From the UHGV virus genome UHGV-0007810: DNA of 41,346 bases; one strand, 5' to 3'. Made by a program: the position numbers and the translations under genes. The number at the start of each line of letters is the position of its first letter. The first letter of the stretch is position 1. Positions 136-34,377 of this stretch are shown piece after piece. The DNA is from a virus. Below the pieces are notes generated by a model that was given only the letters and a program-made list of their open reading frames with translations, was not told where the DNA came from and searched no databases.

Positions 136-150
136 TTACCTTAAAGGTAT
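136..150. promoter_or_regulatory. Operator-like palindrome (one mismatch) upstream of integrase
   Basis: TTACCTTAAAGGTAT, matches the TTACC-N5-GGTAA family in 9 of 10 fixed positions; lies inside a longer inverted repeat GACGGTA...TACCGTC. Confidence 0.45.
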
Positions 151-192
151 ACTCTCATACCGTCATGAAAATGGTTTCTATACGGGTGAATT

Positions 193-1443
193 GTGCTTAC
201 CGATACAAAATTAAAAAACCTCAAGCCGCAGGACAAACTGTACAAGGTCTCCGATCGTGACGGGCTGTATGTAGCTGTGCTTACGTCAGGCACGGTCTCG
301 TTTCGCTATGACTACCGTATCAACGGTCGCCGCGAAACACTGGTAATCGGGCAGTATGGGCGTGACGGTATCAGCCTGGCAGAAGCGCGAGAAGAACTGA
401 TTGCTGCAAAGAAGCTGCTTAAAGCAGGCCAGTCACCGGCTGCGGCTAAACGTGACGGTATCAAAAAGATTCGTGGTGCCGAGACGTTTGCGGTACATAC
501 CGACAGTTATATGAAACACGTCATCCTGGCTGACAGTACCCGCGCAATGAAACAGGCGGTGATCGACCGTGACATACTTCCGGTTCTTGGCAATAAAATG
601 ATGGCTGAAATTACCACATCGATGGTTCGTGATTTGTGTGACCGGATTGTCGAACGCGGTGGCCGGGCAACAGCAGTGCAGGCCAGGGAGATCATCAGTA
701 GCGTATACCGTCACGCCAATGACCGTGGTCATGGTTTGTTTAATCCTGCGGCTGACATTAAACCTTCGTCTATCGCCATATTTAAACCACGAGAGCGAAC
801 ACTGACACCAGAAGAAATTGGCCTGTTCTTCCGCACGCTGGATGCCATTGGTGCTATGGGCACTATGAAAATGGCTTTAAAACTGGTGCTTATCACTATG
901 GTTCGTAAGGGCGAATTCACCAATGCAACGTGGGATGAAATAGATTTTAAAAAATGGACATGGACAATTCCTCCAGACCGCATGAAGGGAAGCCGGGCGC
1001 ACGTTATTTACCTGCCTAAACAGGCACAGGATATATTGGTCGGGTTGCAGATGTGCGCTGGTGGAAGTGAATATCTGGTTCCTGGTCGTTACAATTTCCG
1101 AAAGCCATTATCTAATGCCGCGCTGAACTCTCTGATCGACAGAACGGTGAAAATAATAAATGAAGATGGTGAGCATATTCAGGACTTCACTGTACATGAT
1201 ATGCGCCGTACAGCCAGTACGTTGTTGCATGAGGCTGGTTATCCTTCAGACTGGATTGAAAAGGCTCTGGCACATGAGCAGAAAGGTGTGCGCGCCGTAT
1301 ATAACAAAGCGGAATACGCCAGACAGCGCGCCTACATGTTGCAGCAGTGGGCCGATATGATTGATTCATGGATTGACGGGGAGCATACGGATCTGATTCC
1401 GTTCTCCCCGTCGAAGTTTGAGAAGTGGATGGCGGGGGAATAA
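193..1443 (+). CDS. Tyrosine recombinase / integrase, P4-type (GTG start in ORF track)
   Basis: 416 aa; N-terminal arm-binding-like region typical of P4-family integrases; C-terminal HDMRRT...HEAGY...VYNKAEY matches the tyrosine recombinase catalytic region. Confidence 0.85.
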   Translation: MLTDTKLKNLKPQDKLYKVSDRDGLYVAVLTSGTVSFRYDYRINGRRETLVIGQYGRDGISLAEAREELIAAKKLLKAGQSPAAAKRDGIKKIRGAETFAVHTDSYMKHVILADSTRAMKQAVIDRDILPVLGNKMMAEITTSMVRDLCDRIVERGGRATAVQAREIISSVYRHANDRGHGLFNPAADIKPSSIAIFKPRERTLTPEEIGLFFRTLDAIGAMGTMKMALKLVLITMVRKGEFTNATWDEIDFKKWTWTIPPDRMKGSRAHVIYLPKQAQDILVGLQMCAGGSEYLVPGRYNFRKPLSNAALNSLIDRTVKIINEDGEHIQDFTVHDMRRTASTLLHEAGYPSDWIEKALAHEQKGVRAVYNKAEYARQRAYMLQQWADMIDSWIDGEHTDLIPFSPSKFEKWMAGE

Positions 1444-1446
1444 CGT

Positions 1447-1641
1447 TTAATAGTTCTGCTGATTTTCTTCCATCTCGGCTTCTGCTGCCAGTGATTCAAT
1501 TTTATCTGCGAATATTGCTGACAGTGTTGCAAATTCAGCATCAGTGACAGCGGGAATTGGAACAAACCTGATCCCGCTGTGTGCAAGCATGTTTGCAGTT
1601 TCAAGGCATTTCCTTAAATCTGCTGGTGATGCCCGGTTCAT
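1447..1641 (-). CDS. Hypothetical small acidic protein (64 aa)
   Basis: Internal ATG at 1641 overlaps the stop of the upstream methyltransferase gene (ATGA), suggesting translational coupling; the longer ORF-track version overlaps that gene. Confidence 0.4.
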   Translation of the reverse strand: MNRASPADLRKCLETANMLAHSGIRFVPIPAVTDAEFATLSAIFADKIESLAAEAEMEENQQNY

Positions 1642-2288
1642 GCTGCACGCTCCCGCCCCTGGTTGTCTGTTGGTGACAGCGGAGCATTGCTGAATGCATT
1701 TGTTAATCTGGCAATATCCAATGCGTATCCAGGGTGTAGTTGCACTGCCGGGTCTTCGCACTGATTACCCCAAACATCGAAGCCATGAGACGACTGGCGG
1801 GCGAACAGTTCAATGCGAGAAACATCGCCTAACAATTGCACAAGTTTTTCACGAACGACATCTGGTTTTCTTGAATGCTCAAGCCGCGGTGCGGTAAATG
1901 ACTGAACGATCCCTGCATTAATGCGCGGAGGTAGTTTTCCCTTTACTGCAAACAGGCAATCTTCACTATTGGCGCGAGTCATGTGTCCCATACCCATAAC
2001 CAGTTTATCTGGTTGTCGACTACCACATTTTATCCATGTGAAGCCCTTCATGGTCATCAGACGGAATCCCCAGGCTTCAACAACTTTTAGAGCTTCGAGT
2101 GGTTGTGTTGGCACCCACCACATGGCCAACAGACAGTTTTCATCGGCCAAATCCCACACAGGAAGGCGGCAGATATCCATCACACTCATAACCGGATATT
2201 TAAAACCGGCACCGCGATTACCATCTGCGGCTTTGTCCCGGTATACCCAGGGTGGATCTGCATAGATTAGTGTGTATTTCTTAGTCAT
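1638..2288 (-). CDS. DNA N6-adenine methyltransferase, MT-A70-like
   Basis: 216 aa with the catalytic DPPW motif (LIYADPPWVY) near the N-terminus; GGGGTGG Shine-Dalgarno upstream. Confidence 0.75.
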   Translation of the reverse strand: MTKKYTLIYADPPWVYRDKAADGNRGAGFKYPVMSVMDICRLPVWDLADENCLLAMWWVPTQPLEALKVVEAWGFRLMTMKGFTWIKCGSRQPDKLVMGMGHMTRANSEDCLFAVKGKLPPRINAGIVQSFTAPRLEHSRKPDVVREKLVQLLGDVSRIELFARQSSHGFDVWGNQCEDPAVQLHPGYALDIARLTNAFSNAPLSPTDNQGRERAA

Positions 2289-2580
2289 AAACCACCCCGC
2301 AACATCCTATACCGCTATAGTCGCCACGGCGAAGGCCGTTACCTTTTGTGATACATTGGTCCCTGCGAACCGCGATCCTTGCACGCTCAACATCACCAGA
2401 AGCAACATCCATACACTGAAGCCAAAGGTGAGCGGCAATGCGGAACTGTCCTTTTTTCTCTCTTTCAATTGCGCGTTTTTCGATCTCTATCGCCGCAGGA
2501 GTAACGGCGACAATCTTTGACGGACTGCGCATTGAAACCTTGTTCATGTGATATTTTTCAAGTCGGCTTAACTTTCTCAC
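2281..2580 (-). CDS. Hypothetical protein
   Basis: 99-aa ORF ending with an overlap onto the methyltransferase start; start codon uncertain (GTG at 2580 or internal ATGs). Confidence 0.35.
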   Translation of the reverse strand: MRKLSRLEKYHMNKVSMRSPSKIVAVTPAAIEIEKRAIEREKKGQFRIAAHLWLQCMDVASGDVERARIAVRRDQCITKGNGLRRGDYSGIGCCGVVYD

Positions 2581-2689
2581 TTAATCCAACCCTCTCTGAA
2601 AATTAATGCCAGCAGATAAAGCCATGCTGAAACAGAGGCCAGGAATAAGTACCATCCTGACCATTTGCTCCAGTGCCTTAGCAGCACAC

Positions 2690-2938
2690 TCATGCAGCGT
2701 TGCTCACAGGACGATATACACGTTGCTGAACAGGAGGTTTTTTACCCTGGAACTCTGCCGGGCTTGCTGCCTGACGTTCATCAAGCCAACGCTCAACTTC
2801 ATCACGGTTCCATGCGCAGCGTTTATCGGTGATATACCAGCGTTTAGGAAATTCCCCTGCGCGCTCCATACGATCGATAGTGCTCCATGACAGTGGCACC
2901 ACCGCCAGGAGTTCCTTCTTACCTAATGCACCTTTCAT
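2690..2938 (-). CDS. AlpA-family excisionase / transcriptional regulator
   Basis: 82 aa; LLAVVPLSWSTIDRMERAGEFPKRWYIT resembles the AlpA/Xis helix-turn-helix; GAGAGG Shine-Dalgarno. Confidence 0.65.
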   Translation of the reverse strand: MKGALGKKELLAVVPLSWSTIDRMERAGEFPKRWYITDKRCAWNRDEVERWLDERQAASPAEFQGKKPPVQQRVYRPVSNAA

Positions 2939-2987
2939 AAATACCTCTCTTGGTTGCAGTGCGGCGCGCGTGGCGCCGCGGTGGTGG

Positions 2988-3869
2988 TTACATAGATGTT
3001 TCGTTTAATTCTTCCCGACGAACGCTGTAAACGTCGGTGGCTTTTGCCAGCAGTTCGTCATCATCTGAAAGTTTTTGTGCAATATATTTGTAAGCCTTAT
3101 CCAGTTCGGAGACAGTGCTGTAATTCATCGCTGCGCTGGTAAAGGCCATCAGCATTTCTTCTGGCTCACGGCTATCCGCTTTACGCGTTTGCTCATCAGG
3201 CTTTTTCACTGATTTAGCGTTGATCAGACTGTTCATTCCCGCAGCCGTAGTTGTTTGCGGAGTAATGTCTCGCTCAACGCGCGGTGCCGTTTCCTGTAAT
3301 TCGTCAGGGGTGTAAACACCAAGAAGTACATCAGGAGCGTGCAGGCGAGCCCATCGTTTCGTGCAAAGATAGGCAAGTTGCTGGCGCGGATCCTGTTCCC
3401 ACAATGGAGAGTTACGCACTCCGGCTTGCGCCATACTGATGGTAAGCTCACGTGGTTCTGCTTCTCCTTTAAGGACTGCTGACACAGTTACCGTCAGATT
3501 CGGTGATTTATCTGTTTTGCCGTTAACATTCGACCAGTCACCGCTCCAGCGATAATTAAGGCGTGTCGCCAGCAGGCTGGAAGAGGATACGACCGCGTTT
3601 ACCAACTGTGCTTCGTAGCCTAACGTTCCGTTTACCACATGCGTTTTCTGCGCCACGGCGAAAGGGTTCATTCCCCACTGTGCCGCCTGCATGGTCACCG
3701 CCAGACAATCGGCAGGTTTGCCTTCAAGATGTTTCGGTACAGTCGCTTTGCTTTGTGACATCAACTCCGCGAAACGCACCAGTTGATTCATGCCCTCCGG
3801 GCTGAAGATTGCCGCAGCAGTACCTACAGTTGCGCCTGGTTGTGATGTGATTGCGATATCATTGCTCAT
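2988..3869 (-). CDS. RecT-family single-strand annealing recombinase
   Basis: 293 aa; the central region (KPADCLAVTMQAAQWGMNPF...GTLGYEAQL) resembles RecT/Bet-like proteins; start overlaps the stop of the upstream exonuclease gene. Confidence 0.65.
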   Translation of the reverse strand: MSNDIAITSQPGATVGTAAAIFSPEGMNQLVRFAELMSQSKATVPKHLEGKPADCLAVTMQAAQWGMNPFAVAQKTHVVNGTLGYEAQLVNAVVSSSSLLATRLNYRWSGDWSNVNGKTDKSPNLTVTVSAVLKGEAEPRELTISMAQAGVRNSPLWEQDPRQQLAYLCTKRWARLHAPDVLLGVYTPDELQETAPRVERDITPQTTTAAGMNSLINAKSVKKPDEQTRKADSREPEEMLMAFTSAAMNYSTVSELDKAYKYIAQKLSDDDELLAKATDVYSVRREELNETSM

Positions 3870-4687
3870 ACGTACATATCCTGTTTACGTGCCCAGTCAG
3901 GGCGTTTAATAATTTCCACTCCGCCCCACTCATCGTTGATGCGGCATTCGTGATAGGTATTCAGATCCCGGCGGAACAGAGCGTGCCCGGCATCGACATC
4001 CGGCGCATCCAGCTCGAACACGCGTACCGGATATCGACCACAATCAATGCTTTCGCTCACGGCAAGAAAGAAAAAACCATGCGGCTGACCAGTAACCCTC
4101 ATTGCGCCTTCGCGGTACATTGCGTCCTGCACGTGGTAGCGGAATTCCTCGATGTGGCGTGCAAAACGGTCCATATCTGCAACCTTTTTCACGTCGACGA
4201 TCACGTTGTGCTCGTTCAGCCATTTGTCTGGACGAATGCGGCACAACTCACCAGTATCTTCATCGTTCCAGTACATTGATGCTTCGCAGTAACCAGGTGC
4301 TTCCAGCATCCAGCGTGCCGCCGGGTGAGCCATTGCGCTATCACGCATCAGCTCCAGTTTCCGCCACTGCTCGGCATCAAGTACCGTAATCCCCATATCC
4401 GCCACATCACGAAGAAATGCCTCTTCGTCAGCTTTACCTTGTTTCGTCCGACGATCGAATTTCGGTGAAACAATGAAGCGTTTGTCGAACTCTCCAGGCT
4501 CCAGAAGCAGACAGTGCAATGCGGTTCCCATATCCAGTGCAGACTTTTTCTCTTCGTCTTCTGGTGCTGCCTGAACCCATTTAAGAAGCGCCGGATTCTT
4601 GGCAACCATGTCCAGTTGCGACTTACTCACGCCGTCACCGGCGTGGTAGTCTTCGTTGCTGATGTCGAAATAAATTCCCGGTTTCAT
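3866..4687 (-). CDS. RecE-like exonuclease (PD-(D/E)XK nuclease domain)
   Basis: 273 aa; N-terminal YFDISNEDYHA motif and overall pattern resemble the exonuclease VIII / YqaJ-type nuclease domain; paired with RecT. Confidence 0.65.
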   Translation of the reverse strand: MKPGIYFDISNEDYHAGDGVSKSQLDMVAKNPALLKWVQAAPEDEEKKSALDMGTALHCLLLEPGEFDKRFIVSPKFDRRTKQGKADEEAFLRDVADMGITVLDAEQWRKLELMRDSAMAHPAARWMLEAPGYCEASMYWNDEDTGELCRIRPDKWLNEHNVIVDVKKVADMDRFARHIEEFRYHVQDAMYREGAMRVTGQPHGFFFLAVSESIDCGRYPVRVFELDAPDVDAGHALFRRDLNTYHECRINDEWGGVEIIKRPDWARKQDMYV

Positions 4688-4983
4688 GCCGCGTCCCTCT
4701 GTCCATCAAGCTGATCCGCCAGATCCCAGCGCGCTATAATTGCCATTGCCTCTCGCCGATAGGCATCCATCAGTTCTTCGAACTCAGGGCTGTCTTTAGC
4801 AGCCTCCAGCACTTCCTGACGAACGCCTTTGCCTGTTACAACGTCGAAAGTTGAGGACAGTTGATGAAGTCGGATGCTCTCAATCAGTTCAACTTGTCGG
4901 TCATATAGCTGTTCTGACAGGCGGTAGTCCTTGTCGAATGCCAGCATGATTTTTTGAAGATTTTTCTGCTGATTAACGTTCAT
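4684..4983 (-). CDS. Hypothetical protein (about 99 aa from the second ATG)
   Basis: ORF-track ORF 4684..4998; the second ATG at 4983 is preceded by GGAGGG and is the likelier start. Confidence 0.5.
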   Translation of the reverse strand: MNVNQQKNLQKIMLAFDKDYRLSEQLYDRQVELIESIRLHQLSSTFDVVTGKGVRQEVLEAAKDSPEFEELMDAYRREAMAIIARWDLADQLDGQRDAA

Positions 4984-4985
4984 TA

Positions 4986-5138
4986 TCAGCCCTCCCATAT
5001 CTCGTTATCGTTGGCTACATCGCGAGCTTCTTTGCTGACGAAAGCCCACTTAATGCCTTCCTGTAAGGTGCGGAACTTCCAGCTCATGAATCCGCATGCA
5101 GTAACGCAGTACCAACCTTTGATGATTTTCCACTGCAT
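4986..5138 (-). CDS. Hypothetical small protein (50 aa), first gene of the leftward early operon
   Basis: Not in the ORF track (<60 aa); hand translation MQWKIIKGWYCVTACGFMSW...; GAGGT Shine-Dalgarno 8 nt upstream; stop lies 2 nt before the next start. Confidence 0.35.
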   Translation of the reverse strand: MQWKIIKGWYCVTACGFMSWKFRTLQEGIKWAFVSKEARDVANDNEIWEG

Positions 5139-5157
5139 AACTTGTTACCTCGGTCTG

Positions 5158-5172
5158 TTACCGTTGAGGTAA
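5158..5172. promoter_or_regulatory. Operator-like palindrome TTACCGTTGAGGTAA
   Basis: Exact TTACC-N5-GGTAA, 20 nt upstream of the first gene of the leftward early operon. Confidence 0.55.
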
Positions 5173-5219
5173 TAATTATGCGTATTTGGTTTGATGTCAA
5201 TAGATATGAGTTAAAAAAA

Positions 5220-5234
5220 TTACCCATTAGGTAA
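5220..5234. promoter_or_regulatory. Operator-like palindrome TTACCCATTAGGTAA
   Basis: Exact TTACC-N5-GGTAA in the promoter region of the leftward early operon. Confidence 0.55.
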
Positions 5235-5244
5235 TAGTATAGGC

Positions 5245-5269
5245 AATAAAAAAGCCGCCAGAAGGCGGC
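5245..5269 (-). terminator. Rho-independent terminator after the repressor gene
   Basis: GCCGCC-AGAA-GGCGGC hairpin with an A-run on the + strand (T-run on the - strand). Confidence 0.6.
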
Positions 5270-5291
5270 TTACTTACTGAAAAGTATGATT

Positions 5292-5876
5292 TTATTGTTT
5301 GTTTTTTTCGTTCTGGTTGATGACAAATTCAATGTAACTTTCGATCTTTGCTTTCTCGGTTTCGGGTAACAATGCGTAGCGCGAGCGGTCATAGTTGATG
5401 GTCGCAGGGTCGTGCGGGTGAATCAGTAATTCATAGCCGTGACGCCCGAATGCGGATGCAACATTCTCCAGGGTGGAAATGGAAACGCTGACCTCATTGT
5501 TTAACAGGCGACTGATTGTCACCTGGGCGACGCCGGATGCGCGGTGAAGTTTTCCCTGCGTTGAAAGGTCGCGGCTTTCGCTCATCCAGCGTTCCAGGTT
5601 GTGAGCCGCCAGCTGACCAATGTCGCTTGGGCCGACAGGCTGAAAACCTTCCTGAGAAAGCGAGCGATCGATATCAAGCCAGTTACGGGGTTTATTGGCG
5701 GCAGCTTCAATTTTTCGTGCAACCTGGTCGCCGATAACCTTCTTGCCAAGAGCCCAGCGGTTTACCAGATTTGCCTGAGTTCCAAGTTTTTCTGCCATCC
5801 GCGTCTGAACACCATTGAATTCACGGTCGATCAAGTCGTTGAGATTTTGCCTGCGGACGTCCTGGATACTTTTCAT
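5292..5876 (-). CDS. CI-like phage repressor with two helix-turn-helix regions, no LexA-like peptidase domain
   Basis: 194 aa; HTH-like segments near the N-terminus (QTRMAEKLGTQANLVNRW) and the middle (ASGVAQVTISRLLNNE); divergent from the cro-like gene; no G-D-S-M / Ser-Lys cleavage-domain signature seen. Confidence 0.7.
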   Translation of the reverse strand: MKSIQDVRRQNLNDLIDREFNGVQTRMAEKLGTQANLVNRWALGKKVIGDQVARKIEAAANKPRNWLDIDRSLSQEGFQPVGPSDIGQLAAHNLERWMSESRDLSTQGKLHRASGVAQVTISRLLNNEVSVSISTLENVASAFGRHGYELLIHPHDPATINYDRSRYALLPETEKAKIESYIEFVINQNEKNKQ

Positions 5877-5931
5877 TTTCTGGAAAATCGCCTCATATAT
5901 GAATCAGTAGATGATTCAATTTAAAGCAATA

Positions 5932-5946
5932 TTACCCAACAGGTAA
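5932..5946. promoter_or_regulatory. Operator O1 in the repressor/cro intergenic region
   Basis: TTACCCAACAGGTAA, exact. Confidence 0.6.
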
Positions 5947-5948
5947 AT

Positions 5949-5963
5949 GCACCTCATAGGTAA
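5949..5963. promoter_or_regulatory. Operator O2 (variant) in the repressor/cro intergenic region
   Basis: GCACCTCATAGGTAA, one half-site mismatch; centre 17 bp from O1. Confidence 0.5.
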
Positions 5964-5979
5964 CTATCCTTGATTTTTG

Positions 5980-5994
5980 TTACCTTATGGGTGA
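5980..5994. promoter_or_regulatory. Operator O3 (variant) in the repressor/cro intergenic region
   Basis: TTACCTTATGGGTGA, one half-site mismatch; about 40 nt upstream of the cro-like start. Confidence 0.5.
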
Positions 5995-6030
5995 ATATTT
6001 ATTATCTGAAATAAATATCAGGCAATAGCT

Positions 6031-6261
6031 ATGAGCGATAACGGACATTTCGATTTCAAAAAGCACTGGCTTGCACTTACTCCGGATGAGCGTGAAGCCT
6101 TCGCACAGGAAGCCGGAACGACGAGTCACTATATCCAGACTCACTTAACAGGTAAGCGCAAAATGCCAGGTAAGGTATTGATGAATGGGCTTTTTAAAGC
6201 CTGTAAAACAAGACAATGGCTGCGCTCAAAAGCAGAACTGGCATACTTCTTCTACTCATGA
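6031..6261 (+). CDS. Cro-like HTH regulator
   Basis: 76 aa; HTH-like LTPDEREAFAQEAGTTSHYIQTHLTGKRK; divergent from the repressor across the triple-operator region. Confidence 0.6.
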   Translation: MSDNGHFDFKKHWLALTPDEREAFAQEAGTTSHYIQTHLTGKRKMPGKVLMNGLFKACKTRQWLRSKAELAYFFYS

Positions 6262-6283
6262 TATCCAGCCACAACCCTCTGTA

Positions 6284-6308
6284 GACCGCCATCCGGCGGT
6301 CTTTTCAT
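6284..6308 (+). terminator. Rho-independent terminator after the cro-like gene
   Basis: GACCGCC-ATCC-GGCGGTC followed by TTTTCAT. Confidence 0.6.
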
Positions 6309-6316
6309 ATCTATTC

Positions 6317-6331
6317 GTACCTCAAAGGTAA
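6317..6331. promoter_or_regulatory. Operator-like palindrome (variant) GTACCTCAAAGGTAA
   Basis: Just downstream of the post-cro terminator and upstream of the replication operon. Confidence 0.45.
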
Positions 6332-6411
6332 TAAAAAACCAAATCTGGTTGATCTTTTTTTTGTGTCAGCACAAAATGACCGTAATCCCAATACTAATAA
6401 CAGGGCTTACC

Positions 6412-6612
6412 ATGGAAATCATTACACGTATTGATGCCGCAAAGCGCGGACTTAAACGCTACTACACCGGAAAACCATGTAAGCATGGACATGACAGTGA
6501 ACGCTGGGTTTACAACGGACACTGTGTTGAGTGCACCATGGAATCAAACCGTCGCATCAGGGCAGAGATTAAGCAGATCATGATTAATTCCTCCCCACAA
6601 CACTCAAGCTGA
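6412..6612 (+). CDS. Hypothetical Cys/His-rich small protein (cII position)
   Basis: About 66 aa from the ATG at 6412; C-x4-H ... C-x2-C arrangement (KPCKHGH...GHCVEC); start uncertain (ORF track starts at 6349 with TTG). Confidence 0.45.
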   Translation: MEIITRIDAAKRGLKRYYTGKPCKHGHDSERWVYNGHCVECTMESNRRIRAEIKQIMINSSPQHSS

Positions 6613-6627
6613 TAGCGGAGATTAATC

Positions 6628-7443
6628 ATGAGCAGACATGCAACAGATTGGGCCTGGGAGACAGATCCAGGTAGCTCATCATTAAAGCTCATACTGCTCT
6701 CGATGGCTGACAGAGCCGATGAATATAACCTCTGCTACCCCAGCATAGAACGCCTCGTTAAAGACACTTGCCTGAATAAAAAAACCGTGCAGGCCGGGCT
6801 TATATCGCTCATGAAAATGGGGCTTATTTCAGATACCGGAGAGAGAAAGGGAGCGACAAAAAGAGTGCGGGTTTTCTCTCTTAATATAACCAAAAACGGG
6901 AACATTAAAGGCAACCGGGAGGGGGGCAATGAACCCGAAAACGGTAATGTTACCGAAAACGGGAATATACCCAAAAACGGGATGTTGAATGATCCCAAAA
7001 ACGGGATGTTGAATGATCCCAAAAACGGGATCCAGAACCAGTCATATAACCAGTCATTTAACCAAGAGAGGGAGAGCAGGACAAAAACCGGGGATTCTGT
7101 TCCTCATGACCCCGGCGCAAACAACGCCGTGATGAATAACTTTGTTCCTCCTGGTGGGCCAGGGCAATTAGGCAAATTTGTCATGCATGAACAATGGCAG
7201 CCATCAGATGACTTTCTTCGGAAAAGCTCATTGCAGGGAATCTACCTGGACAGTCTGCCAACGGCACAGGAACTTGCAGAGTTCAGAATTTACTGGATGG
7301 CTGAGGGTAAGGCATACCATCAGGCACAGTGGGAGCAGAAGCTGGCAAGGCGGCTGCAGATTAGCAGACAGAAGCAATCAACATTACCTGATAACAACGT
7401 TCCGCACTGGAACAGCCCTGAAGCATGGGAGGATTTCTTGTGA
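6628..7443 (+). CDS. Replication initiator (O-like, N-terminal DNA-binding domain)
   Basis: 271 aa; GGAG Shine-Dalgarno; position before the P-like gene; internal KNG-rich repeat region encoded by direct DNA repeats. Confidence 0.6.
   Translation: MSRHATDWAWETDPGSSSLKLILLSMADRADEYNLCYPSIERLVKDTCLNKKTVQAGLISLMKMGLISDTGERKGATKRVRVFSLNITKNGNIKGNREGGNEPENGNVTENGNIPKNGMLNDPKNGMLNDPKNGIQNQSYNQSFNQERESRTKTGDSVPHDPGANNAVMNNFVPPGGPGQLGKFVMHEQWQPSDDFLRKSSLQGIYLDSLPTAQELAEFRIYWMAEGKAYHQAQWEQKLARRLQISRQKQSTLPDNNVPHWNSPEAWEDFL
6889..7035. repeat. Iteron-like direct repeats inside the O-like gene (candidate replication origin)
   Basis: Six copies of CC(A/G)AAAACGG(G/T) at 6889, 6934, 6954, 6971, 6994, 7018 (spacing 17-45 bp); two are full 24-bp repeats CCCAAAAACGGGATGTTGAATGAT; AACCAGTCAT x2 follows at 7047-7067. 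Confidence 0.6.
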
Positions 7444-8225: not shown

Positions 8226-8230
8226 TACCA

Positions 8231-8250
8231 GCGCGATAGCGCATTTTTTT
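8231..8250 (+). terminator. Weak terminator-like element after the P-like gene
   Basis: Short GCGC-GATA-GCGC stem followed by a run of eight T. Confidence 0.35.
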
Positions 8251-8262
8251 ACGTCTCGATAA

Positions 8263-8277
8263 TTACCTTCGAGGTAA
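8263..8277. promoter_or_regulatory. Operator-like palindrome TTACCTTCGAGGTAA
   Basis: Exact; upstream of a sigma70-like promoter (TTGATT-17-TTTAAT at about 8297-8325). Confidence 0.55.
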
Positions 8278-8324
8278 TAAAATATTCTAAAATCTATTGA
8301 TTTCGTGTCTTATGTGGTTTTTAA

Positions 8325-8339
8325 TTACCTAAGGGGTAA
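8325..8339. promoter_or_regulatory. Operator-like palindrome TTACCTAAGGGGTAA
   Basis: Exact; overlaps the putative -10 and ribosome-binding region 4 nt before the ATG at 8343. Confidence 0.55.
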
Positions 8340-8342
8340 ATC

Positions 8343-10548: not shown

Positions 10549-10898
10549 TGGACTATTCACAGTTAAGTGATTTTGAAATTAACAGAATGGTAGGAGACAT
10601 AATTTTTAAAGGCCTTTGGGCGTGTAAACCGGAAACATCAGGGAATAACACCAACAAATGGTATTACGGAAATACTGATACAACTTTTGAGCCATTAAAC
10701 CCTTTACCTGACTACTGCAATAATCCATCGGATGCATGGCCTATTATTGTTGATAATAAAATCAGTCTAACCTGCCACCAATCTCGCGGTGAGTGGTCAG
10801 CTGTTTTTAATACCGAGAACATTTGCTTTCATGCGAATAATCCACTCCGAGCCGCCATGATTGTATTTCTCATGATGCAGGAAAATCAGAATGGCTAA
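10548..10898 (+). CDS. Hypothetical protein
   Basis: Internal ATG 10548 overlapping the upstream stop (TGATG) with GGAGG upstream; the ORF-track N-terminal extension overlaps the previous gene. Confidence 0.5.
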   Translation: MDYSQLSDFEINRMVGDIIFKGLWACKPETSGNNTNKWYYGNTDTTFEPLNPLPDYCNNPSDAWPIIVDNKISLTCHQSRGEWSAVFNTENICFHANNPLRAAMIVFLMMQENQNG

Positions 10899-11229
10899 AT
10901 CAGCAGCAGAGCGCAAAGCCGCTCAGAGAGCCAGACAAGCTGCATCTGGTGTGCGTAAGCTGGAGATTGTGCTTGATGCTCAGGAAATTGAAATGCTTGA
11001 GCGTAACTGTGCCGCGCGTCGCCCCGGGCGTGCGCCTTACGAATTTGGTGAGTATATAGCGTTACTGATCCGCCAGGATGATGTACGCGTGCGCGGGCGT
11101 ATAAAATCGATCAGCAGAAAACGTTGCGGTAAGTGCGGCGAGAGAGTTCCAGTTAATTCATGCCCGTGCAATGGTGACTCGCAATGTTGGGTGACCAAAG
11201 GCTGGCATGAAACGAAATTAATAGTGTGA
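10891..11229 (+). CDS. Hypothetical basic protein with Cys-rich C-terminus
   Basis: 112 aa; AGGAAA Shine-Dalgarno; C-x2-C ... C-x-C cluster; its stop codon lies inside the 12-bp palindrome at 11226. Confidence 0.5.
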   Translation: MAKSAAERKAAQRARQAASGVRKLEIVLDAQEIEMLERNCAARRPGRAPYEFGEYIALLIRQDDVRVRGRIKSISRKRCGKCGERVPVNSCPCNGDSQCWVTKGWHETKLIV

Positions 11230-11237: not shown

Positions 11238-11278
11238 GAGTAGATTATGCATGATGAATTTGATGTGTTTTGAATACT

Positions 11279-11305
11279 GCCGCCAACTATGGCGGCTTTA
11301 TTTTG
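11279..11305 (+). terminator. Rho-independent terminator before the packaging operon
   Basis: GCCGCC-AACTAT-GGCGGC followed by TTTATTTTG. Confidence 0.6.
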
Positions 11306-11315
11306 CATGGTACTA

Positions 11316-11330
11316 TTACCACAACGGTAA
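11316..11330. promoter_or_regulatory. Operator-like palindrome TTACCACAACGGTAA
   Basis: Exact; 20 nt upstream of the small terminase start, within an 11-bp direct repeat ACTATTACCAC x2. Confidence 0.55.
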
Positions 11331-11350
11331 CTATTACCACGGTGGTTACG

Positions 11351-14076: not shown

Positions 14077-14153
14077 TGGCGTGGCATGCAGGATTCGAAC
14101 CTGCGACCAACCGCTTAGAAGGCGGTTGCTCTGTCCAACTGAGCTAATGCCAC
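14077..14153 (-). tRNA. tRNA-Arg (anticodon UCU)
   Basis: Reverse complement folds as a cloverleaf: acceptor GTGGCAT/ATGCCAC, D-stem GCTC/GAGC, anticodon stem ACCGC/GCGGT with loop CTTCTAA (anticodon TCT), T-arm GCAGG-TTCGAAT-CCTGC, discriminator G and CCA. Confidence 0.9.
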
Positions 14154-14475: not shown

Positions 14476-14490
14476 TTACCTGAAAGGTAA
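14476..14490. promoter_or_regulatory. Operator-like palindrome TTACCTGAAAGGTAA
   Basis: Exact; about 90 nt upstream of the small ORF that precedes the portal gene. Confidence 0.55.
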
Positions 14491-19682: not shown

Positions 19683-20287
19683 TGGCCTCTGTAGTAGAGA
19701 TCTGCAATCGTGCGCTGTCCAATATTGGCAATAGCCGCAGCATTAACAGCCTGACGGAAGCCAGTAAGGAAGCGGGGGAATGTTCGCTGCACTTTGAGGC
19801 CTGCCGTGATGCTGTGCTTTCTGATTTTGACTGGAACTTTGCTACCAAACGCGTGGCGCTTGCAGATACGAGCAATCCACCGCCTGACTGGGAATATGCG
19901 TATCAGTACCCGTCAGATTGTCTGCGCATTACTGAAATTATGCTTCCTGGTGTACGCAATCCAACAGCAGCAATGCGCGTTCAGTACGAAGTTGGTGCAG
20001 ACACCAACGGAACAGGAAAGTTGATCTACACAGACCAGCCTCAGGCATGGCTCAAGTATGTCTCTCGCGTTACAGATGTAAACATGTTTGATGCCATTTT
20101 TATGGAGGCGCTGGCCTGGCGTCTTGCGGCAGCCATTAACATGGCGCTGACTGGGAATGCGGATCTCGGTACATTTGCTCTCAATATGTACAATCGCGTG
20201 ATTCTTAGTGCTGGCTCGCATAGCCAGAATGAATCACAGGAACCACAGCCACCGGTTGATGAGTTTACCATTGCGAGGTTGTCCTGA
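19682..20287 (+). CDS. Tail tube / adaptor protein (T7 gp11-position)
   Basis: 201 aa; ATG overlaps the upstream stop; assignment by position and size only. Confidence 0.45.
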   Translation: MASVVEICNRALSNIGNSRSINSLTEASKEAGECSLHFEACRDAVLSDFDWNFATKRVALADTSNPPPDWEYAYQYPSDCLRITEIMLPGVRNPTAAMRVQYEVGADTNGTGKLIYTDQPQAWLKYVSRVTDVNMFDAIFMEALAWRLAAAINMALTGNADLGTFALNMYNRVILSAGSHSQNESQEPQPPVDEFTIARLS

Positions 20288-28079: not shown

Positions 28080-28084
28080 ATTAA

Positions 28085-30559: not shown

Positions 30560-30568
30560 GGAAGTGTT

Positions 30569-30742
30569 GTGTTTTTAATTATTTTGAGTGTGATAATTTC
30601 TGGTGGATTGTTATTTATTGACCGCTACAAATATTTTCTTAACCCTCAGACTCAAGCTATTTGCTGGTTCATCTTTGTTGTGCAGGGAGTAGTTCTTGTT
30701 GCAAGCCTTATTGAGGGGAGGCCTCTTATTTTTACTGGGTAA
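30569..30742 (+). CDS. Small membrane protein (57 aa, two predicted TM helices)
   Basis: Not in the ORF track; hand-translated from GTG 30569 (AAGGAAG 5 nt upstream): MFLIILSVIISGGLLFIDRY...AICWFIFVVQGVVLVASLI.... Confidence 0.35.
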   Translation: MFLIILSVIISGGLLFIDRYKYFLNPQTQAICWFIFVVQGVVLVASLIEGRPLIFTG

Positions 30743-30755
30743 ATTAGGTGACTAC

Positions 30756-31052
30756 ATGCAAGCTATAGGATTCATTGTTTATATCGTCGTTGGTCTTTTT
30801 CAGTTGGCAGCAATTATGGCTGGGCTTGAATCATGGTGGGGATTGCACTGGATAATTGCAGCCCCCATTGCTTTCATCGTGAGCTATATTCCATTTGTTG
30901 GAGCGATTGTTGGTATGGTTGGCGCTGTGGATGTATGGCGGTGGGAGTGGTGGCAGGCTGGCCTTCTCTTCTTTGGTGGGATCATCTTTGCTATTGTCTG
31001 CGGTGGAATGTCATCATTTTTCGAACGGCTATCATTCAGAAAAGGAACGTGA
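30756..31052 (+). CDS. Membrane protein (about 98 aa, three predicted TM helices)
   Basis: ATG 30756 with AGGTGA upstream; hydrophobic throughout; stop codon lies inside the 12-bp palindrome at 31049. Confidence 0.5.
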   Translation: MQAIGFIVYIVVGLFQLAAIMAGLESWWGLHWIIAAPIAFIVSYIPFVGAIVGMVGAVDVWRWEWWQAGLLFFGGIIFAIVCGGMSSFFERLSFRKGT

Positions 31053-31060
31053 CATGTCAC
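31049..31060. repeat. Perfect 12-bp palindrome GTGACATGTCAC (copy 3 of 3)
   Basis: Exact; directly abuts the terminator hairpin at 31061-31085. Confidence 0.8.
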
Positions 31061-31085
31061 AGGCCGCTTTCGCGGCCTTGTTTTT
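31061..31085 (+). terminator. Rho-independent terminator after the membrane-protein gene
   Basis: AGGCCGC-TTTC-GCGGCCT followed by TGTTTTT. Confidence 0.65.
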
Positions 31086-31245
31086 AACGAATGCCACCGC
31101 CACCCGGGCGGGAATCCGCAGAACGCCCACCGCAGCGGGAGCCGTCAGCGGCAGTATCGCTGTCGTGCTGACAACGACCGGCAAAGGCCTGAGTTGAAGC
31201 TACCAGAGACAACAAAACGAACAGTGCAGCAAATGCTTTTTTCAT
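31084..31245 (-). CDS. Possible small secreted peptide (53 aa with signal-peptide-like N-terminus)
   Basis: MKKAFAALFVLLSLVASTQAFA followed by a 31-aa Cys-containing tail; GC-rich segment, and the opposite strand also has an ORF, so coding status is uncertain. Confidence 0.3.
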   Translation of the reverse strand: MKKAFAALFVLLSLVASTQAFAGRCQHDSDTAADGSRCGGRSADSRPGGGGIR

Positions 31246-31313
31246 TGTGAAATTTCCATCTATAATCCACCTCAATGTGGCGTCAATGAGTGTAGCACTG
31301 ACTTTTGTTTCGT

Positions 31314-31338
31314 CCACAAAAAAGCCCGCGGCGCGGGC
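31314..31338 (-). terminator. Rho-independent terminator after the AT-rich gene
   Basis: GCCCGCG / CGCGGGC stem with an 8-nt A-run on the + strand (T-run on the - strand). Confidence 0.6.
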
Positions 31339-31884
31339 TTATTCCTTCCATTTATCAGAAAAAAGATCTTCTTCTAAAGGCATTGGTTCTGTTTTTGTTT
31401 TCTCAAAGAATTGATAACTGATAGTGATTGCTGCCTCTTTAAACTCTTCTTGCTCAGTTATGTTGTGGGCATCTGCGTCAACAAAAAACATAACCAGCGC
31501 ATCACGATTGTGATTTACCGAATAAACTAAAAAGCAATTACTTGTTGGTATGCATTTTACTTGCACAGACGCTATTTTTTTCCATGCATCCCAAGATGAT
31601 TTTTTACCAGTGTGTTTTTTATCACTATCTTCTGGAATATAGTCTTGGTTATCGACATGAGTATGCCTGACATTTAGTTTAAGCATTTCTGTCGGACGAG
31701 CAAATGCAGCATCTTTACCAAGAGATGGATGGTATCCCGTTTTCCAATACTGGGTAAAGGCATCAGATACTTTCTTCAGCTCAAGATCAGATGCACAAAG
31801 GGCCGAGAAATTTTGCGTATGCAATACTCGACCCTTATATCTGACAATTTGATTTTTATCATTCTGCGACGCAGACGAACTCAT
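31339..31884 (-). CDS. Hypothetical protein with possible YafO-like toxin domain (AT-rich moron)
   Basis: About 181 aa from ATG 31884 (AAGGAAA 5 nt upstream); visibly AT-rich relative to the surrounding DNA; GYHPSLGKDAAF...VRHTHV...FLVYSV resembles YafO-family toxins as recalled (unverified). Confidence 0.55.
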   Translation of the reverse strand: MSSSASQNDKNQIVRYKGRVLHTQNFSALCASDLELKKVSDAFTQYWKTGYHPSLGKDAAFARPTEMLKLNVRHTHVDNQDYIPEDSDKKHTGKKSSWDAWKKIASVQVKCIPTSNCFLVYSVNHNRDALVMFFVDADAHNITEQEEFKEAAITISYQFFEKTKTEPMPLEEDLFSDKWKE

Positions 31885-32038
31885 AATTTTCCTTATTGTT
31901 ACGAGAATCAAAGAAAGCGCGGGATACGCGACTTGCGTGATCTTTTGTCATAGTAACTTTTACGCACTCTACGCTTCCATTGAAAGAACGTCTTGCGGCA
32001 GCTTGCGCTCTACGCATCTGCAATTTTTCGTTTCGCAT
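31859..32038 (-). CDS. Hypothetical small basic protein (59 aa) upstream of the YafO-like gene
   Basis: Not in the ORF track; hand-translated MRNEKLQMRRAQAAARRSFNGSVECVKVTMTKDHASRVSRAFFDSRNNKENYEFVCVAE; GAGGT Shine-Dalgarno 7 nt upstream; overlaps the downstream gene by 26 nt. Confidence 0.3.
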   Translation of the reverse strand: MRNEKLQMRRAQAAARRSFNGSVECVKVTMTKDHASRVSRAFFDSRNNKENYEFVCVAE

Positions 32039-32098
32039 GACATTACCTCATATCTCATAAGTTCATTACACGGATTAATAAAAATGAAACCAATCCGT

Positions 32099-32113
32099 TT
32101 ACCCTTGAGGTAA
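32099..32113. promoter_or_regulatory. Operator-like palindrome TTACCCTTGAGGTAA
   Basis: Exact; in the promoter region of the leftward small-ORF / YafO-like unit. Confidence 0.55.
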
Positions 32114-32161
32114 TAGTACGCTATTCACCCACAGTCTGCAATCTGTACAGAATTATTTAAA

Positions 32162-32177
32162 GGCACATCCCTGTGCC
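32162..32177 (-). terminator. Terminator-like hairpin after the Bro-N gene
   Basis: GGCACA-TCCC-TGTGCC 9 nt beyond the stop, followed on the - strand by a T/A-rich stretch. Confidence 0.35.
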
Positions 32178-32185
32178 GCCGCCCG

Positions 32186-32881
32186 TCAGAAGAACCCTGC
32201 CTTGTCGTTGATGTACTCCGCGTGCGTCTGGATATCACGCAGGCATTTGCTCACACCGACGATGTAGCAGAACATGGTGGTCAGCTCCGCCGCCGCGCCC
32301 GATACGTCGTGCCCGTCGTCCTGTAACTGGTTCAGCAGATTCATCAGCAGTGAGTTCTCCGTCAGGCCGAGAACACCAGACGGCGAATGAATCAGGCTGC
32401 GGTAGCCGGGCTTCAGTGGGGCACTGTAGGTTTTGTTCTCTATCTTCATCGCCTGCATCACTGCTGATGCTGTGGCGTTGGCTACCTGGTCGGCAACCAT
32501 CTTTATGCGCTCTTCCTGCGGGAGCGAGTTTTTAATGTAACTTCCGGTGCGGCGGATCTGAGGAAGAACCTCACCTGTAACCCATTTACGAAAGCGGTAT
32601 GGGATAGTGCCTGGTGTCACTGCGTCGCGGCAGCGGAGGATCAGTGTGTAGAGGCCTGACTCGGAGATGATGATCGATTCTTGCTCACCGCCAGGGGTGT
32701 CGGTTGAAGCGACGCCCTTCTCATCATCATCAAGTTTTCGAACAGCATCTCGATGGTTTGCTATGCCTATAGCCCGACAAACATCTGAAGCGATAAACCA
32801 TGGCTCACCATTAATGACGATTACTCGTATATCGGCTTGGGATTCGAAAGAAAAAATGGACGTGCTTTTTGTAGCTGTCAT
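32186..32881 (-). CDS. Bro-N domain protein (antirepressor-like), C-terminal domain paralogous to 34029..34286
   Basis: 231 aa; N-terminal FESQADIRVIVINGEPWFIASDVCRAIGIANHRDAVRKL is a classic Bro-N signature; C-terminal ~70 aa align with the small LexA-box gene product. Confidence 0.75.
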   Translation of the reverse strand: MTATKSTSIFSFESQADIRVIVINGEPWFIASDVCRAIGIANHRDAVRKLDDDEKGVASTDTPGGEQESIIISESGLYTLILRCRDAVTPGTIPYRFRKWVTGEVLPQIRRTGSYIKNSLPQEERIKMVADQVANATASAVMQAMKIENKTYSAPLKPGYRSLIHSPSGVLGLTENSLLMNLLNQLQDDGHDVSGAAAELTTMFCYIVGVSKCLRDIQTHAEYINDKAGFF

Positions 32882-33150
32882 AGTGGTTACCTTTTAGTCA
32901 GGTTAATCACCACTACCGACGCCAATCGGTTGGTGGTGAACTGTGCAGGGTTGGCGTAACCGGCTAAAAGGACCCGGCGCACCTTTCGGTGCCCCCACAC
33001 AGCCCACCATAATACGAATGTGGCCGTGCTATACGCATAAAAAAACCGCTTGCGCGGTGAATGCGCCTTTTAGTAATCCGGGACGCCAATCCCGGCACTG
33101 GATTTTGCCAGTGCCCGATTACTATGGCACAAGAGGAGTGCAATGTAAAT

Positions 33151-33165
33151 TTACCGCAAAGGTAA
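33151..33165. promoter_or_regulatory. Operator-like palindrome TTACCGCAAAGGTAA
   Basis: Exact; in the divergent region between the Bro-N gene and the zinc-ribbon gene. Confidence 0.55.
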
Positions 33166-33243
33166 TGATAAACGCGGAGAAATATTAAAATCAACCGCAT
33201 TTGGTTGATTGCGTTTAACGCTTGATCACCTGAAAGCAAGATA

Positions 33244-33258
33244 TTACCTTTAAGGTAA
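33244..33258. promoter_or_regulatory. Operator-like palindrome TTACCTTTAAGGTAA
   Basis: Exact; 20 nt upstream of the ATG at 33279. Confidence 0.55.
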
Positions 33259-33278
33259 TGTTATTGTGAGGAAAAGCA

Positions 33279-34007
33279 ATGGAAGTTTTCTGGATAGTTG
33301 TTGGTGTTGTTACGGTGATTATTTACGTTATCAACCAGAACAGGACTAAGGTCTCTGATCGCACAGTCGTTAATCATCGCAAAACGATAAAGACCGAAGA
33401 TGGAGAAATAACGATTAATCGTACACAGGTGATAGACCACACCTCCACTCAGTTTCAAAAAACTGGAGGTAATGCGCCTAATATTTCCGCACCTCCTGCT
33501 TATGATAGTGCGGTAATCCAGACATATTATAAACAGCAGGAGTTAGCAAAAGAGAGGCAACTGATTCAGCCAAAGCCATTTACAGCAGAGCTTCCACCTG
33601 GAGTGTCAACGCGTCCGGCATATCATGGAAGATTCCCTGGTGATGACATATCGTCTCAGTCATCTAAAAAAGCACCTCAGGCAGTATCAGAGCCAGCAAG
33701 AATACCTTCTGTATCGCCGCCAAAAGAAGAATCAGCTAACAGAGTTTCAAGTGGTAGCAAGCAGTGCTTGCGATGCAGAATAAACCTTCCATATGAAAAA
33801 TTCAGGAAATCGTCAAAAAATCCAGATGGATTGACTAAGTGGTGTGCAAGGTGTCTCGATGGTCCAAAGAATACACGCCATATGAAGTGGTGCCCAATTT
33901 GTAATGTCCGCAGAAAACGAACCAGCTTTTACCCTAATAATCAAAATGCGGATGGCTTAATGGCATGGTGCAAAACGTGCTGGGACGAGCACAAAGCGAA
34001 ACGATAG
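33279..34007 (+). CDS. Membrane-anchored protein with tandem C-x2-C ... WC-x2-C zinc-ribbon-like repeats
   Basis: 242 aa; N-terminal TM helix (FWIVVGVVTVIIYVI), Pro/Ser-rich linker, two repeats CLRCR...DGLTKWCARC and CPICN...DGLMAWCKTC. Confidence 0.6.
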   Translation: MEVFWIVVGVVTVIIYVINQNRTKVSDRTVVNHRKTIKTEDGEITINRTQVIDHTSTQFQKTGGNAPNISAPPAYDSAVIQTYYKQQELAKERQLIQPKPFTAELPPGVSTRPAYHGRFPGDDISSQSSKKAPQAVSEPARIPSVSPPKEESANRVSSGSKQCLRCRINLPYEKFRKSSKNPDGLTKWCARCLDGPKNTRHMKWCPICNVRRKRTSFYPNNQNADGLMAWCKTCWDEHKAKR

Positions 34008-34030
34008 GCCGCTCTAGCGGCCTTTTCTTT
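34006..34030. terminator. Bidirectional terminator-like hairpin between convergent genes
   Basis: AGGCCGC-TCTA-GCGGCCT followed by TTTCTTT. Confidence 0.55.
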
Positions 34031-34286
34031 ATGTGGTTTGTTTTCGTAATTGTTCGGCACAATAGTCGAGATGTGTTTGCAAATCCTGCATAGACATCTG
34101 TGAGCTGGTGACGTAGTTAATCAGTGCAGTCAGTTCGGCAAGTGGGCCATCGACATTAAATCCATCCTTATCGAGATCCCGGAGTAATTTCATCAAGTGC
34201 GATCCCTCCACCAGTGACCTGACGCCTCCCGGCGTGTGAATCCTTTCGGTAAATCCGTCTTCCAGTGGATAGTGATACTGCTGCAT
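34029..34286 (-). CDS. Small protein behind a LexA box (candidate SOS-induced antirepressor)
   Basis: About 85 aa from ATG 34286 (GGAG 8 nt upstream); homologous to the Bro-N protein C-terminus; consensus LexA box 22-37 nt upstream of the start. Confidence 0.6.
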   Translation of the reverse strand: MQQYHYPLEDGFTERIHTPGGVRSLVEGSHLMKLLRDLDKDGFNVDGPLAELTALINYVTSSQMSMQDLQTHLDYCAEQLRKQTT

Positions 34287-34307
34287 CTTATCTTCTCCAT
34301 GCAATAA

Positions 34308-34323
34308 CTGTATATTTATACAG
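34308..34323. promoter_or_regulatory. LexA (SOS) box
   Basis: CTGTATATTTATACAG with flanks AA...TA; matches CTGT-N8-ACAG and the consensus TACTGTATATATATACAGTA at 18 of 20 positions. Confidence 0.7.
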
Positions 34324-34362
34324 TATCAAATAATTTGTTTGCTATCCAGCACGTTTTGCAAA

Positions 34363-34377
34363 TTACCCGAAAGGTAA
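34363..34377. promoter_or_regulatory. Operator-like palindrome TTACCCGAAAGGTAA
   Basis: Exact; between the LexA-box promoter and the tail-fibre gene. Confidence 0.55.

Follow-up and report, generated by a model that had tools for sequence, protein, structure and literature searches.

Palindromes dispersed across a phiV10-like Escherichia coli prophage are very probably operators of its master repressor, Rep

UHGV virus genome UHGV-0007810, a stretch of 41,346 nucleotides referred to here as the window, carries a palindrome, TTACC-N5-GGTAA, that recurs between genes over most of its length, raising the question of which protein recognizes it and what it does at each place. A preliminary description of the window had proposed that a single regulator, most simply a CI-like repressor encoded at 5292..5876, directly contacts nearly every operon of a lambdoid phage. 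Our analysis indicates that the palindromes are very probably operators of the prophage master repressor, Rep, which is the product of that gene, and that they are placed at about ten transcription units. Sequence comparison also changes the identity of the phage and the kind of repressor involved. The coordinates of the sites and of the genes discussed are collected in Table 1.

A pattern scan of the window showed 11 exact copies of TTACC-N5-GGTAA at the coordinates given for them in the preliminary description, where 0.03 would be expected (the earlier estimate was fewer than 0.1), and none of 100 shuffled sequences reached 11. All 11 lie in non-coding DNA (chance probability, 1.6e-11), which accounts for 4,308 bases (10.4%) of the window on a provisional gene map that combines its list of open reading frames with the annotation of Escherichia phage phiV10; a first-order Markov model restricted to the non-coding DNA predicts 0.008 copies. 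The palindromes are perfect (5+5) and their flanks symmetric, and a weight matrix extends the full consensus to the 17-bp sequence A-TTACC-N5-GGTAA-T, with an A/T-rich centre. When this matrix was symmetrised and scanned with its flanks, the best 14 matches were all intergenic, the score then dropped sharply, and 16 of the top 17 matches were intergenic. The scan did not reveal many equally good copies within coding sequence, which had been named as grounds for doubting a dedicated operator system. One-mismatch matches within genes occur at 34595 (in the tailspike gene) and 37708 (in a membrane-protein gene), which is the chance level (0.77 expected).

Five degenerate copies (136, 5949, 5980, 6317, and 11334), at positions that are conserved in related phages, bring the candidate sites to 16, distributed among 10 intergenic regions over 34 kb. 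Four one-mismatch variants had been listed previously. Those at 136, 5980, and 6317 stand, but 5949 has two mismatches, and 11334, which has one, had been overlooked. The presence of three copies between the divergent rep and cro-like genes, at 5932, 5949, and 5980, was borne out. Site 11334 counts as intergenic because the start of the small-terminase gene is placed at ATG 11351, as in epsilon15; the site may, nevertheless, be nothing other than a ribosome-binding site. In the phiV10 RefSeq record (NC_007804.2, 41-120), the small-terminase gene is given a TTG start, equivalent to window position 11270, and so reads across the terminator and both operators. Going by the epsilon15 annotation, ATG 11351 is probably the true start and the phiV10 start is mis-set.

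About 90% of the first 25 kb of the window is 97 to 98% identical to phiV10 and its relatives. Sequence matches and annotation together identify it as a phiV10-like E. coli prophage of the genus Uetakevirus, and it is therefore not lambdoid, as had been claimed, because phiV10 and its relatives are epsilon15-like podoviruses. The supposed likeness of the half-sites to those of lambda operators was also rejected as superficial, the spacing being ACC-N5-GGT in the window and ACC-N3-GGT in lambda. Within the genus, exact copies of the palindrome number 8 in phiV10, 11 in epsilon15, 10 in SPC32H, 9 in the Enterobacter phage Tyrion, and 9 in the Klebsiella phage BUCT711, and they occupy equivalent places: single sites precede the small-terminase gene and the portal operon, and another lies in the ant/tailspike gap; the leftward early promoter and the region after the replication genes have a pair each, and three sites separate rep from cro; weakened single sites lie after the cro terminator and upstream of int. 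At the corresponding place, phiV10, Tyrion, and BUCT711 share the weakened left half-site of the site after the cro terminator (6317).

The epsilon15 RefSeq record contains seven features labelled "protein_bind, repressor, lysogeny", and the sequence extracted from them is ATTACC-N5-GGTAAT. Two of them (12-27 and 2931-2947) coincide in place with the small-terminase operator and with site 14476, respectively, and a third is given in Table 1. The dispersed operator set had thus been recorded before in the type phage of the genus and is a known feature, not a discovery, because epsilon15 annotates the same sites as repressor binding; a literature text search for the motif or for epsilon15 repressor binding gave no useful match. 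The earlier judgement that such an arrangement is unusual remains correct with respect to lambda, but this phage is no lambdoid and the arrangement had already been recorded for its genus. The additional operators of this prophage (32099, 33151, and 33244) lie in an accessory island different from that of the epsilon15/SPC32H system.

Residues 1 to 190 of Rep match the SPC32H repressor (PDB 5D50 chain A; E=4e-42), and the C-terminal half of Rep aligns with the C-terminal domain of SPC32H Rep (5D4Z). A Pfam search with Rep found only helix-turn-helix (HTH) families and no S24 peptidase domain, the domain responsible for self-cleavage. The label "CI-like" is therefore better replaced by that of a full-length homolog of SPC32H Rep. 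Rep is 100% identical to the repressors of phiV10 and vB_EcoP_ZX5 and 42 to 43% identical overall to those of the Salmonella phages, and the genus shows no variation in its recognition helix, NLVNRW. The relatives of Rep are tetramers that are inactivated by an antirepressor, and Rep is not a self-cleaving repressor of the lambda CI type. One of two papers that summarise Kim et al. 2016 describes SPC32H Rep as a tetramer on palindromic sites, with DNA-binding pairs formed by N-terminal domains from different dimers, and describes its dismantling by a tetrameric Ant (PMC9638917); in the other, the tetramerisation domain of SPC32H Rep is said to resemble DNA-looping domains (PMC9986798). In ZX5, overexpression of the repressor abolished free phage and reduced transcripts for endolysin by 99.99% and for holin by 99.97% (PMC9782041).

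Promoter overlap was found at 5158, 5980, 8325, 11316, and 33151. The leftward early promoter (TTGACA, 17 bp, AATTAT) drives the recombination operon, and its -10 element ends on the first base of the operator at 5158-5172; this register fits six sites in all (5158, 8325, 11316, 14476, 32099, and 33151), with 14476 and 32099 having possible leftward promoters; the candidate that abuts 14476 is TAGACA-18-AATTAT. At the small terminase, the arrangement of extended -10 and operator is conserved in epsilon15, SPC32H, and Tyrion, and the DUF1064 gene (ATG 8343) has its ribosome-binding site in the centre of the operator at 8325. A single promoter register for all of the sites was considered and rejected, as 136, 6317, 33244, and 34363 do not fit it. 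Because the operators at these promoters cover the -10 element, the start site, or the spacer, direct repression rather than activation is indicated.

The pairs 5158/5220 and 8263/8325 form mirror-image cassettes, each consisting of a proximal operator, a -10, a -35, and a distal operator. When the cassettes are compared across three genomes, the invariant columns are the operator half-sites and the -35, in intergenic DNA that has otherwise diverged, and the centre-to-centre distance between the two operators is 62 bp in 11 of 12 cases from six genomes. Elsewhere, the spacing is 30 to 31 bp between the second and third rep/cro operators and 93 bp between 33151 and 33244, while adjacent pairs are 17 to 18 bp apart; 31, 62, and 93 bp correspond to about 3, 6, and 9 helical turns. 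A Rep tetramer with two DNA-binding units would fit both the paired sites and looping between them. At four places (5252-5234, 6302-6317, 8231-8263, and 11296-11316), an intrinsic terminator is followed 12 to 20 bp on by a Rep operator, an adjacency that suggests that the bound repressor might also block read-through.

Comparison with related prophages had been proposed as a way of tying the motif to its repressor. The two are indeed conserved together within the genus, but covariation there is uninformative and cannot choose among Rep, the Cro-like protein, and gp55 (10891..11229), because all three are conserved alongside the motif: the Cro-like protein at 58 to 84% identity, with an invariant AGTTSHYIQ.HLT segment, and gp55 at 72 to 80%. 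We therefore turned to outgroup phages that share only the N-terminal domain of Rep, namely, PseuP_224, CharmingMan, pOW20-A, H-19B, and Mcat9; in the first four, this domain is 33 to 39% identical to that of Rep. ATTACC-N4-GGTAAT sites occur in Pseudomonas phage PseuP_224 and E. coli phage CharmingMan, ATACC-N5-GGTAT sites in Psychrobacter phage pOW20-A, TTTACC-N5-GATAAA-like sites in H-19B, and degenerate versions in Moraxella phage Mcat9, in every case between cI and cro or shortly downstream of the cI gene. The 31.7 kb of PseuP_224 examined has no homolog of Ant, gp55, or the Cro-like protein, which ties the (T)TACC half-site to the Rep N-terminal domain family. Scans of the whole of CharmingMan, the whole of pOW20-A, and the same 31.7 kb of PseuP_224 showed 4 to 5 operators in each, confined to the flanks of cI. 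Genome-wide dispersal is therefore a trait of Uetakevirus and not of the DNA-binding domain. Together, the homology of Rep, the epsilon15 annotation, the invariant recognition helix, and the outgroups give strong, though indirect, support to the proposal of one regulator, encoded at 5292..5876, in front of most operons, but the lysis cassette is an exception.

Several observations weigh against this assignment. The lysis cassette of the window has no site (best weight-matrix score, 4.7), although phiV10 and epsilon15 do carry one there. Within the genus, as described above, the Cro-like protein and gp55 match the DNA-binding domain of Rep in conservation. The place in epsilon15 that corresponds to site 136 is annotated as an integrase/RNase III site and bears no repressor label; in the window, site 136 is part of a longer inverted repeat at 129-163 (GACGGTAT ... 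ATACCGTC), which may control int by other means. No promoter could be placed with confidence for 136 (int), 6317, 34363 (tailspike), or the rightward portal operon at 14476, nor for 33244. Such operators may act on divergent leftward genes or solely via looping, because a conserved late-promoter-like block sits 47 to 59 bp downstream. Finally, the binding of Rep to the sites of this prophage is something that we infer, as are its contact with each individual site and its repression of the late operons.

The block in question is a second motif, (C)ATATGTGGTT(T/A), found on the plus strand at 8312, 14535, 34410, and 37515 (and also at 34031), upstream of rightward operons (the DUF1064 region, portal, tailspike, and lysis). 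It is present at the same places, downstream of the Rep operator, in phiV10, epsilon15, SPC32H, Tyrion, and BUCT711, and one copy in epsilon15 is annotated within an RNase III site. A fixed spacing between this motif, ATGTGGTT, and a -10 element was rejected because no consistent distance was seen. The motif may be a late-promoter element or the site of an activator.

An alternative to Rep is that the Cro-like protein (6031..6261), as a regulator of the lytic phase, is the main occupant of the dispersed sites, with Rep acting only at the rep/cro sites. The invariant segment of that protein, a putative HTH, is kept in the genomes that share the motif, and in lambda-type switches the operators are common to Cro and CI. 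A lytic-phase protein that occluded the core promoters for the terminase, recombination, and early-late genes would, however, block the growth of its own phage. Moreover, outgroups that have no Cro-like homolog still have (T)TACC operators beside a repressor with the Rep N-terminal domain, and epsilon15 labels its dispersed sites as repressor sites. We consider this explanation improbable in its full form: the rep/cro sites, at a minimum, are probably shared by the Cro-like protein, but at lytic core promoters it is unlikely to be the only protein that binds.

We give still less credence to the idea that an activator encoded by the phage (gp55 or a PerC-like protein) recognizes the motif, which would then mark promoters that are activated together. 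The conserved gp55 is encoded directly upstream of the terminase operator, and a good -35 is wanting at several late promoters. Against this, overlap with the -10/+1 region or the spacer places the sites where a repressor would act, in contrast to the -41 and -61 positions typical of activators; three of the sites lie between rep and cro; and the motif accompanies the Rep N-terminal domain into phages that have no gp55.

It is equally doubtful that the palindromes are not protein operators at all and instead function as RNA hairpins, terminators, or sequences for recombination at module boundaries. They do lie at module junctions, often 12 to 20 bp past a terminator, and short conserved junction sequences might promote mosaic exchange. 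As RNA, however, they would form stems of only 5 to 9 base pairs (-3.3 to -7.2 kcal/mol) with no U-tract, and the hairpin and terminator reading was rejected on these grounds; the loop sequence is unconserved, and in several cases transcription probably starts downstream of the site. Any part played in recombination would be a by-product and would leave the three sites of the rep/cro switch unexplained. Least credible is recruitment of a host transcription factor, which would have a parallel in the host LexA boxes in use at ant in the same region, since no E. coli factor is known to us to recognize such a consensus, the motif goes with a DNA-binding domain encoded by phages of hosts as far apart as Pseudomonas and Psychrobacter, and it is absent from the 1.8 kb of the window that is host DNA.

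Returning to Rep as the binding protein, the following scheme would account for the arrangement. The N-terminal HTH domains of Rep would bind in pairs to A-TTACC-N5-GGTAA-T operators. Three of these would serve the rep/cro promoters, and the others would serve the leftward operon for recombination, the genes for replication, the DUF1064/early-late and portal regions, the small terminase, ant/tailspike, the operon of a second antirepressor, two accessory genes, and possibly int. At the best-defined promoters, bound Rep would exclude RNA polymerase, its operator either lying over the transcription start or filling the spacer between -35 and -10, and at each 62-bp pair a Rep tetramer could grip both operators and loop out the promoter enclosed by them. 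Induction would proceed as in SPC32H, with DNA damage lifting LexA off the ant promoter; Ant would then dismantle the Rep tetramer, and all of the units would be freed together. Rep might on these terms be a whole-genome silencer, in which each transcription unit has its own operator, a flat network released by Ant replaces a cascade of antitermination or activators, the 62-bp pairs form micro-loops, and operators beside terminators serve as roadblocks, the last being a palindromic counterpart of mycobacteriophage stoperators. We offer this extension tentatively.

The window contains two putative antirepressor paralogs that appear to be under separate controls, LexA for ant and a C4 RNA for a longer Bro-N protein. 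The ant gene lies between the structural operon and the tailspike gene. A near-consensus LexA box occupies the same spot in four of five relatives (phiV10, epsilon15, SPC32H, and Tyrion), BUCT711 having only a degenerate equivalent. A second LexA box, at 34381-34396 (CTGT-N8-ACAG), is specific to the window, the phiV10 copy being degenerate, and the two boxes flank the operator at 34363. Kim and Ryu reportedly found in 2013 that LexA represses ant in SPC32H and that Rep is not cleaved, and the disposition of ant and its LexA box in the window agrees with that circuit. Immediately upstream of the Bro-N gene, Rfam searches found a C4 antisense RNA (32929-33014, minus strand; 77.7 bits) and an isrK-like small RNA (33039-33114, minus strand; 77.9 bits). 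The likely promoter at 33151 would drive both of these RNAs together with the Bro-N gene. A PADLOC search of the accessory genes gave no defence families. If Rep represses the genes at 31339..31911 and 33279..34007, each of which has its own operator, they are not "morons" expressed in the lysogen.

Table 1. Candidate Rep operators and associated features of the window (promoters are given as -35, spacer length, and -10)
Feature	Position	Strand	Remarks
O_R-1, exact	5932..5946		Closest of the three to rep, probably at its promoter; conserved in each of the six genomes
O_R-2, two mismatches (GCACC...GGTAA)	5949..5963		17 bp from O_R-1; exact at the orthologous position in epsilon15, SPC32H, and BUCT711
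O_R-3, one mismatch	5980..5994		Within the spacer of the rightward promoter TTGTTA 5977-5982, 17 bp, TATTAT 6000-6005
O_L proximal, exact	5158..5172		Abuts the -10 of the leftward promoter TTGACA 5200-5195, 17 bp, AATTAT 5177-5172
O_L distal, exact	5220..5234		62 bp from the proximal operator; 18 bp past the rep terminator 5271-5252
Operator, one mismatch (GTACC)	6317..6331		15 bp past the cro terminator 6283-6302; upstream of the replication genes
Second 62-bp cassette, distal operator, exact	8263..8277		Right after the terminator 3' of the replication genes
Second 62-bp cassette, proximal operator, exact	8325..8339		Promoter TTGATT 8297-8302, 17 bp, TTTAAT 8320-8325 ends on the first base of the operator
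Small-terminase operator, exact	11316..11330		Extended -10 TG-n-TACTAT (11308-11316) ends on the first base; terminator 11279-11296 upstream
Degenerate second small-terminase site, one mismatch	11334..11348		Overlaps the small-terminase ribosome-binding site
Portal-region operator, exact	14476..14490		Separates the leftward tRNA-Arg / Sf6-gp66-like genes from the rightward portal (structural) operon
Ant/tailspike operator, exact	34363..34377		Divergent region with LexA boxes on either side; epsilon15 repressor site at the same place (19895-19911)
Operator, exact	33151..33165		Abuts the -10 of the leftward promoter TTGATT 33194-33189, 18 bp, TATCAT 33170-33165
Operator, exact	33244..33258		20 bp upstream of the 242-amino-acid accessory gene (33279..34007); 93 bp from 33151
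Operator, exact	32099..32113		Upstream of the leftward 190-amino-acid accessory gene (31339..31911); a TACTAT hexamer abuts its leftward side
Possible weak operator (right half GGTAT)	136..150		Upstream of int; same mismatch in all six genomes
rep, SPC32H-type repressor, 194 amino acids	5292..5876	-	N-terminal HTH DNA-binding domain and C-terminal HTH_3-like oligomerisation/Ant-binding domain
Cro-like small regulator, 76 amino acids	6031..6261	+	Divergent from rep; PHROG 35 (transcriptional repressor)
ant, small SPC32H-type antirepressor, about 85 amino acids	34029..34286	-	Position as for SPC32H ant; PHROG 450 and 1760
LexA box CTGTATATTTATACAG, near-consensus	34308..34323		Directly upstream of ant
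Second antirepressor, 231 amino acids	32186..32881	-	Bro-N (Pfam E=2e-21) fused to an SPC32H-Ant-like C-terminal domain (amino acids 148-229; PHROG 450)
Accessory gene, 190 amino acids	31339..31911	-	Weak YafO-toxin-like match, below the Pfam cut-off
Accessory gene, 242 amino acids	33279..34007	+	PHROG 6762; endonuclease VII / Lar-like zinc-finger matches

By comparison of sequences, the system in the window is a member of the Rep-operator-Ant-LexA system of epsilon15 and SPC32H and shows all of its testable features: full-length homology of Rep, the 17-bp motif at the annotated positions, absence of a self-cleavage domain, and a LexA-boxed ant. It differs in the divergence of Rep from its Salmonella phage homologs, in the extra island operators, in the second antirepressor linked to C4 and isrK-like RNAs, and in having no counterpart of the epsilon15 operator at the lysis cassette. 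The CI repressors of H-19B, CharmingMan, PseuP_224, and pOW20-A are alike in the N-terminal domain and in the (T)TACC/GGTA(A) half-sites but have longer, different C-terminal regions; two of them are labelled cI, and in two the spacing is N4. Lambda is similar in its three operators between divergent repressor and cro genes, in its second cluster at the leftward early promoter, and in its 17-bp palindromes bound by HTH proteins. Its operators, however, lie only beside the repressor gene, whereas those of the window spread beyond O_R and O_L; lambda CI cleaves itself (S24), whereas Rep, without an S24 domain, is of the kind inactivated by an antirepressor; and no homolog of the N or Q antiterminator was noted in the window.

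Dispersed operators are also a feature of more distant systems. Stoperators are found in a single orientation, inside transcribed regions. Those of the mycobacteriophages L5 and L1, which are bound by gp71, number dozens genome-wide and are 13-bp asymmetric sequences, some of which block elongation as well as initiation (PMC1934351). The window resembles L5 in the dispersal of its sites, and its operators past terminators would suit a roadblock role, but the sites are symmetric and lie at promoters or in 5' leaders. P1 and P7 are likewise phages whose repressors bind multiple operators (PMC1934351), and P1/P7 C1 is similar to Rep as one master repressor of many separate units, with an antirepressor operon that starts with a C4 RNA (immI c4-ant). 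The operators of P1 are asymmetric, as the same source reports, in contrast to the palindromes of the window, and the Pfam and PHROG matches of Rep are to generic HTH and repressor families, with no sign in these scans of relatedness to C1. Relative to the literature, the strict 62-bp cassette, the 31-bp periodicity, the terminator-operator adjacency, and the link between (T)TACC and one domain family in unrelated phages may be new.

The ends of the prophage can be placed in part. The integrase gene is at 193..1443, and at the other end the att core ATTGAGTGGGAATGATT is present as a single copy in the window, at 39492, with host DNA beyond it. This sequence is given as the att core of the phiV10-like group, for which the integration target is reported as guaA (PMC9782041). 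Two similar terminator hairpins, AACCCTCTG...CAGAGGGTT, lie close to the two prophage ends, at 47-70 and 39533-39560; in sequence, they are consistent with a phage-borne copy of the 3' end of the target gene and its terminator. The attL core appears to have been lost beyond the left edge of the window. Between the terminase genes and the portal operon there is a tRNA-Arg(TCT) gene (14077-14153, minus strand), and the SPC32H record also annotates one.

The main gain from this work is the transfer of the known epsilon15/SPC32H annotation to this prophage, which should be of use in annotating promoters and gene starts in phiV10-like prophages. The system also provides a clear case of a repressor with symmetric operators that would directly control many operons, unlike the lambda model. 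Since the rep-cro immunity region (window 5139-6420) is present, at 95% identity or more, in 541 of 5,426 complete E. coli genomes, the findings concern the logic by which a very common type of E. coli prophage is silenced and induced.

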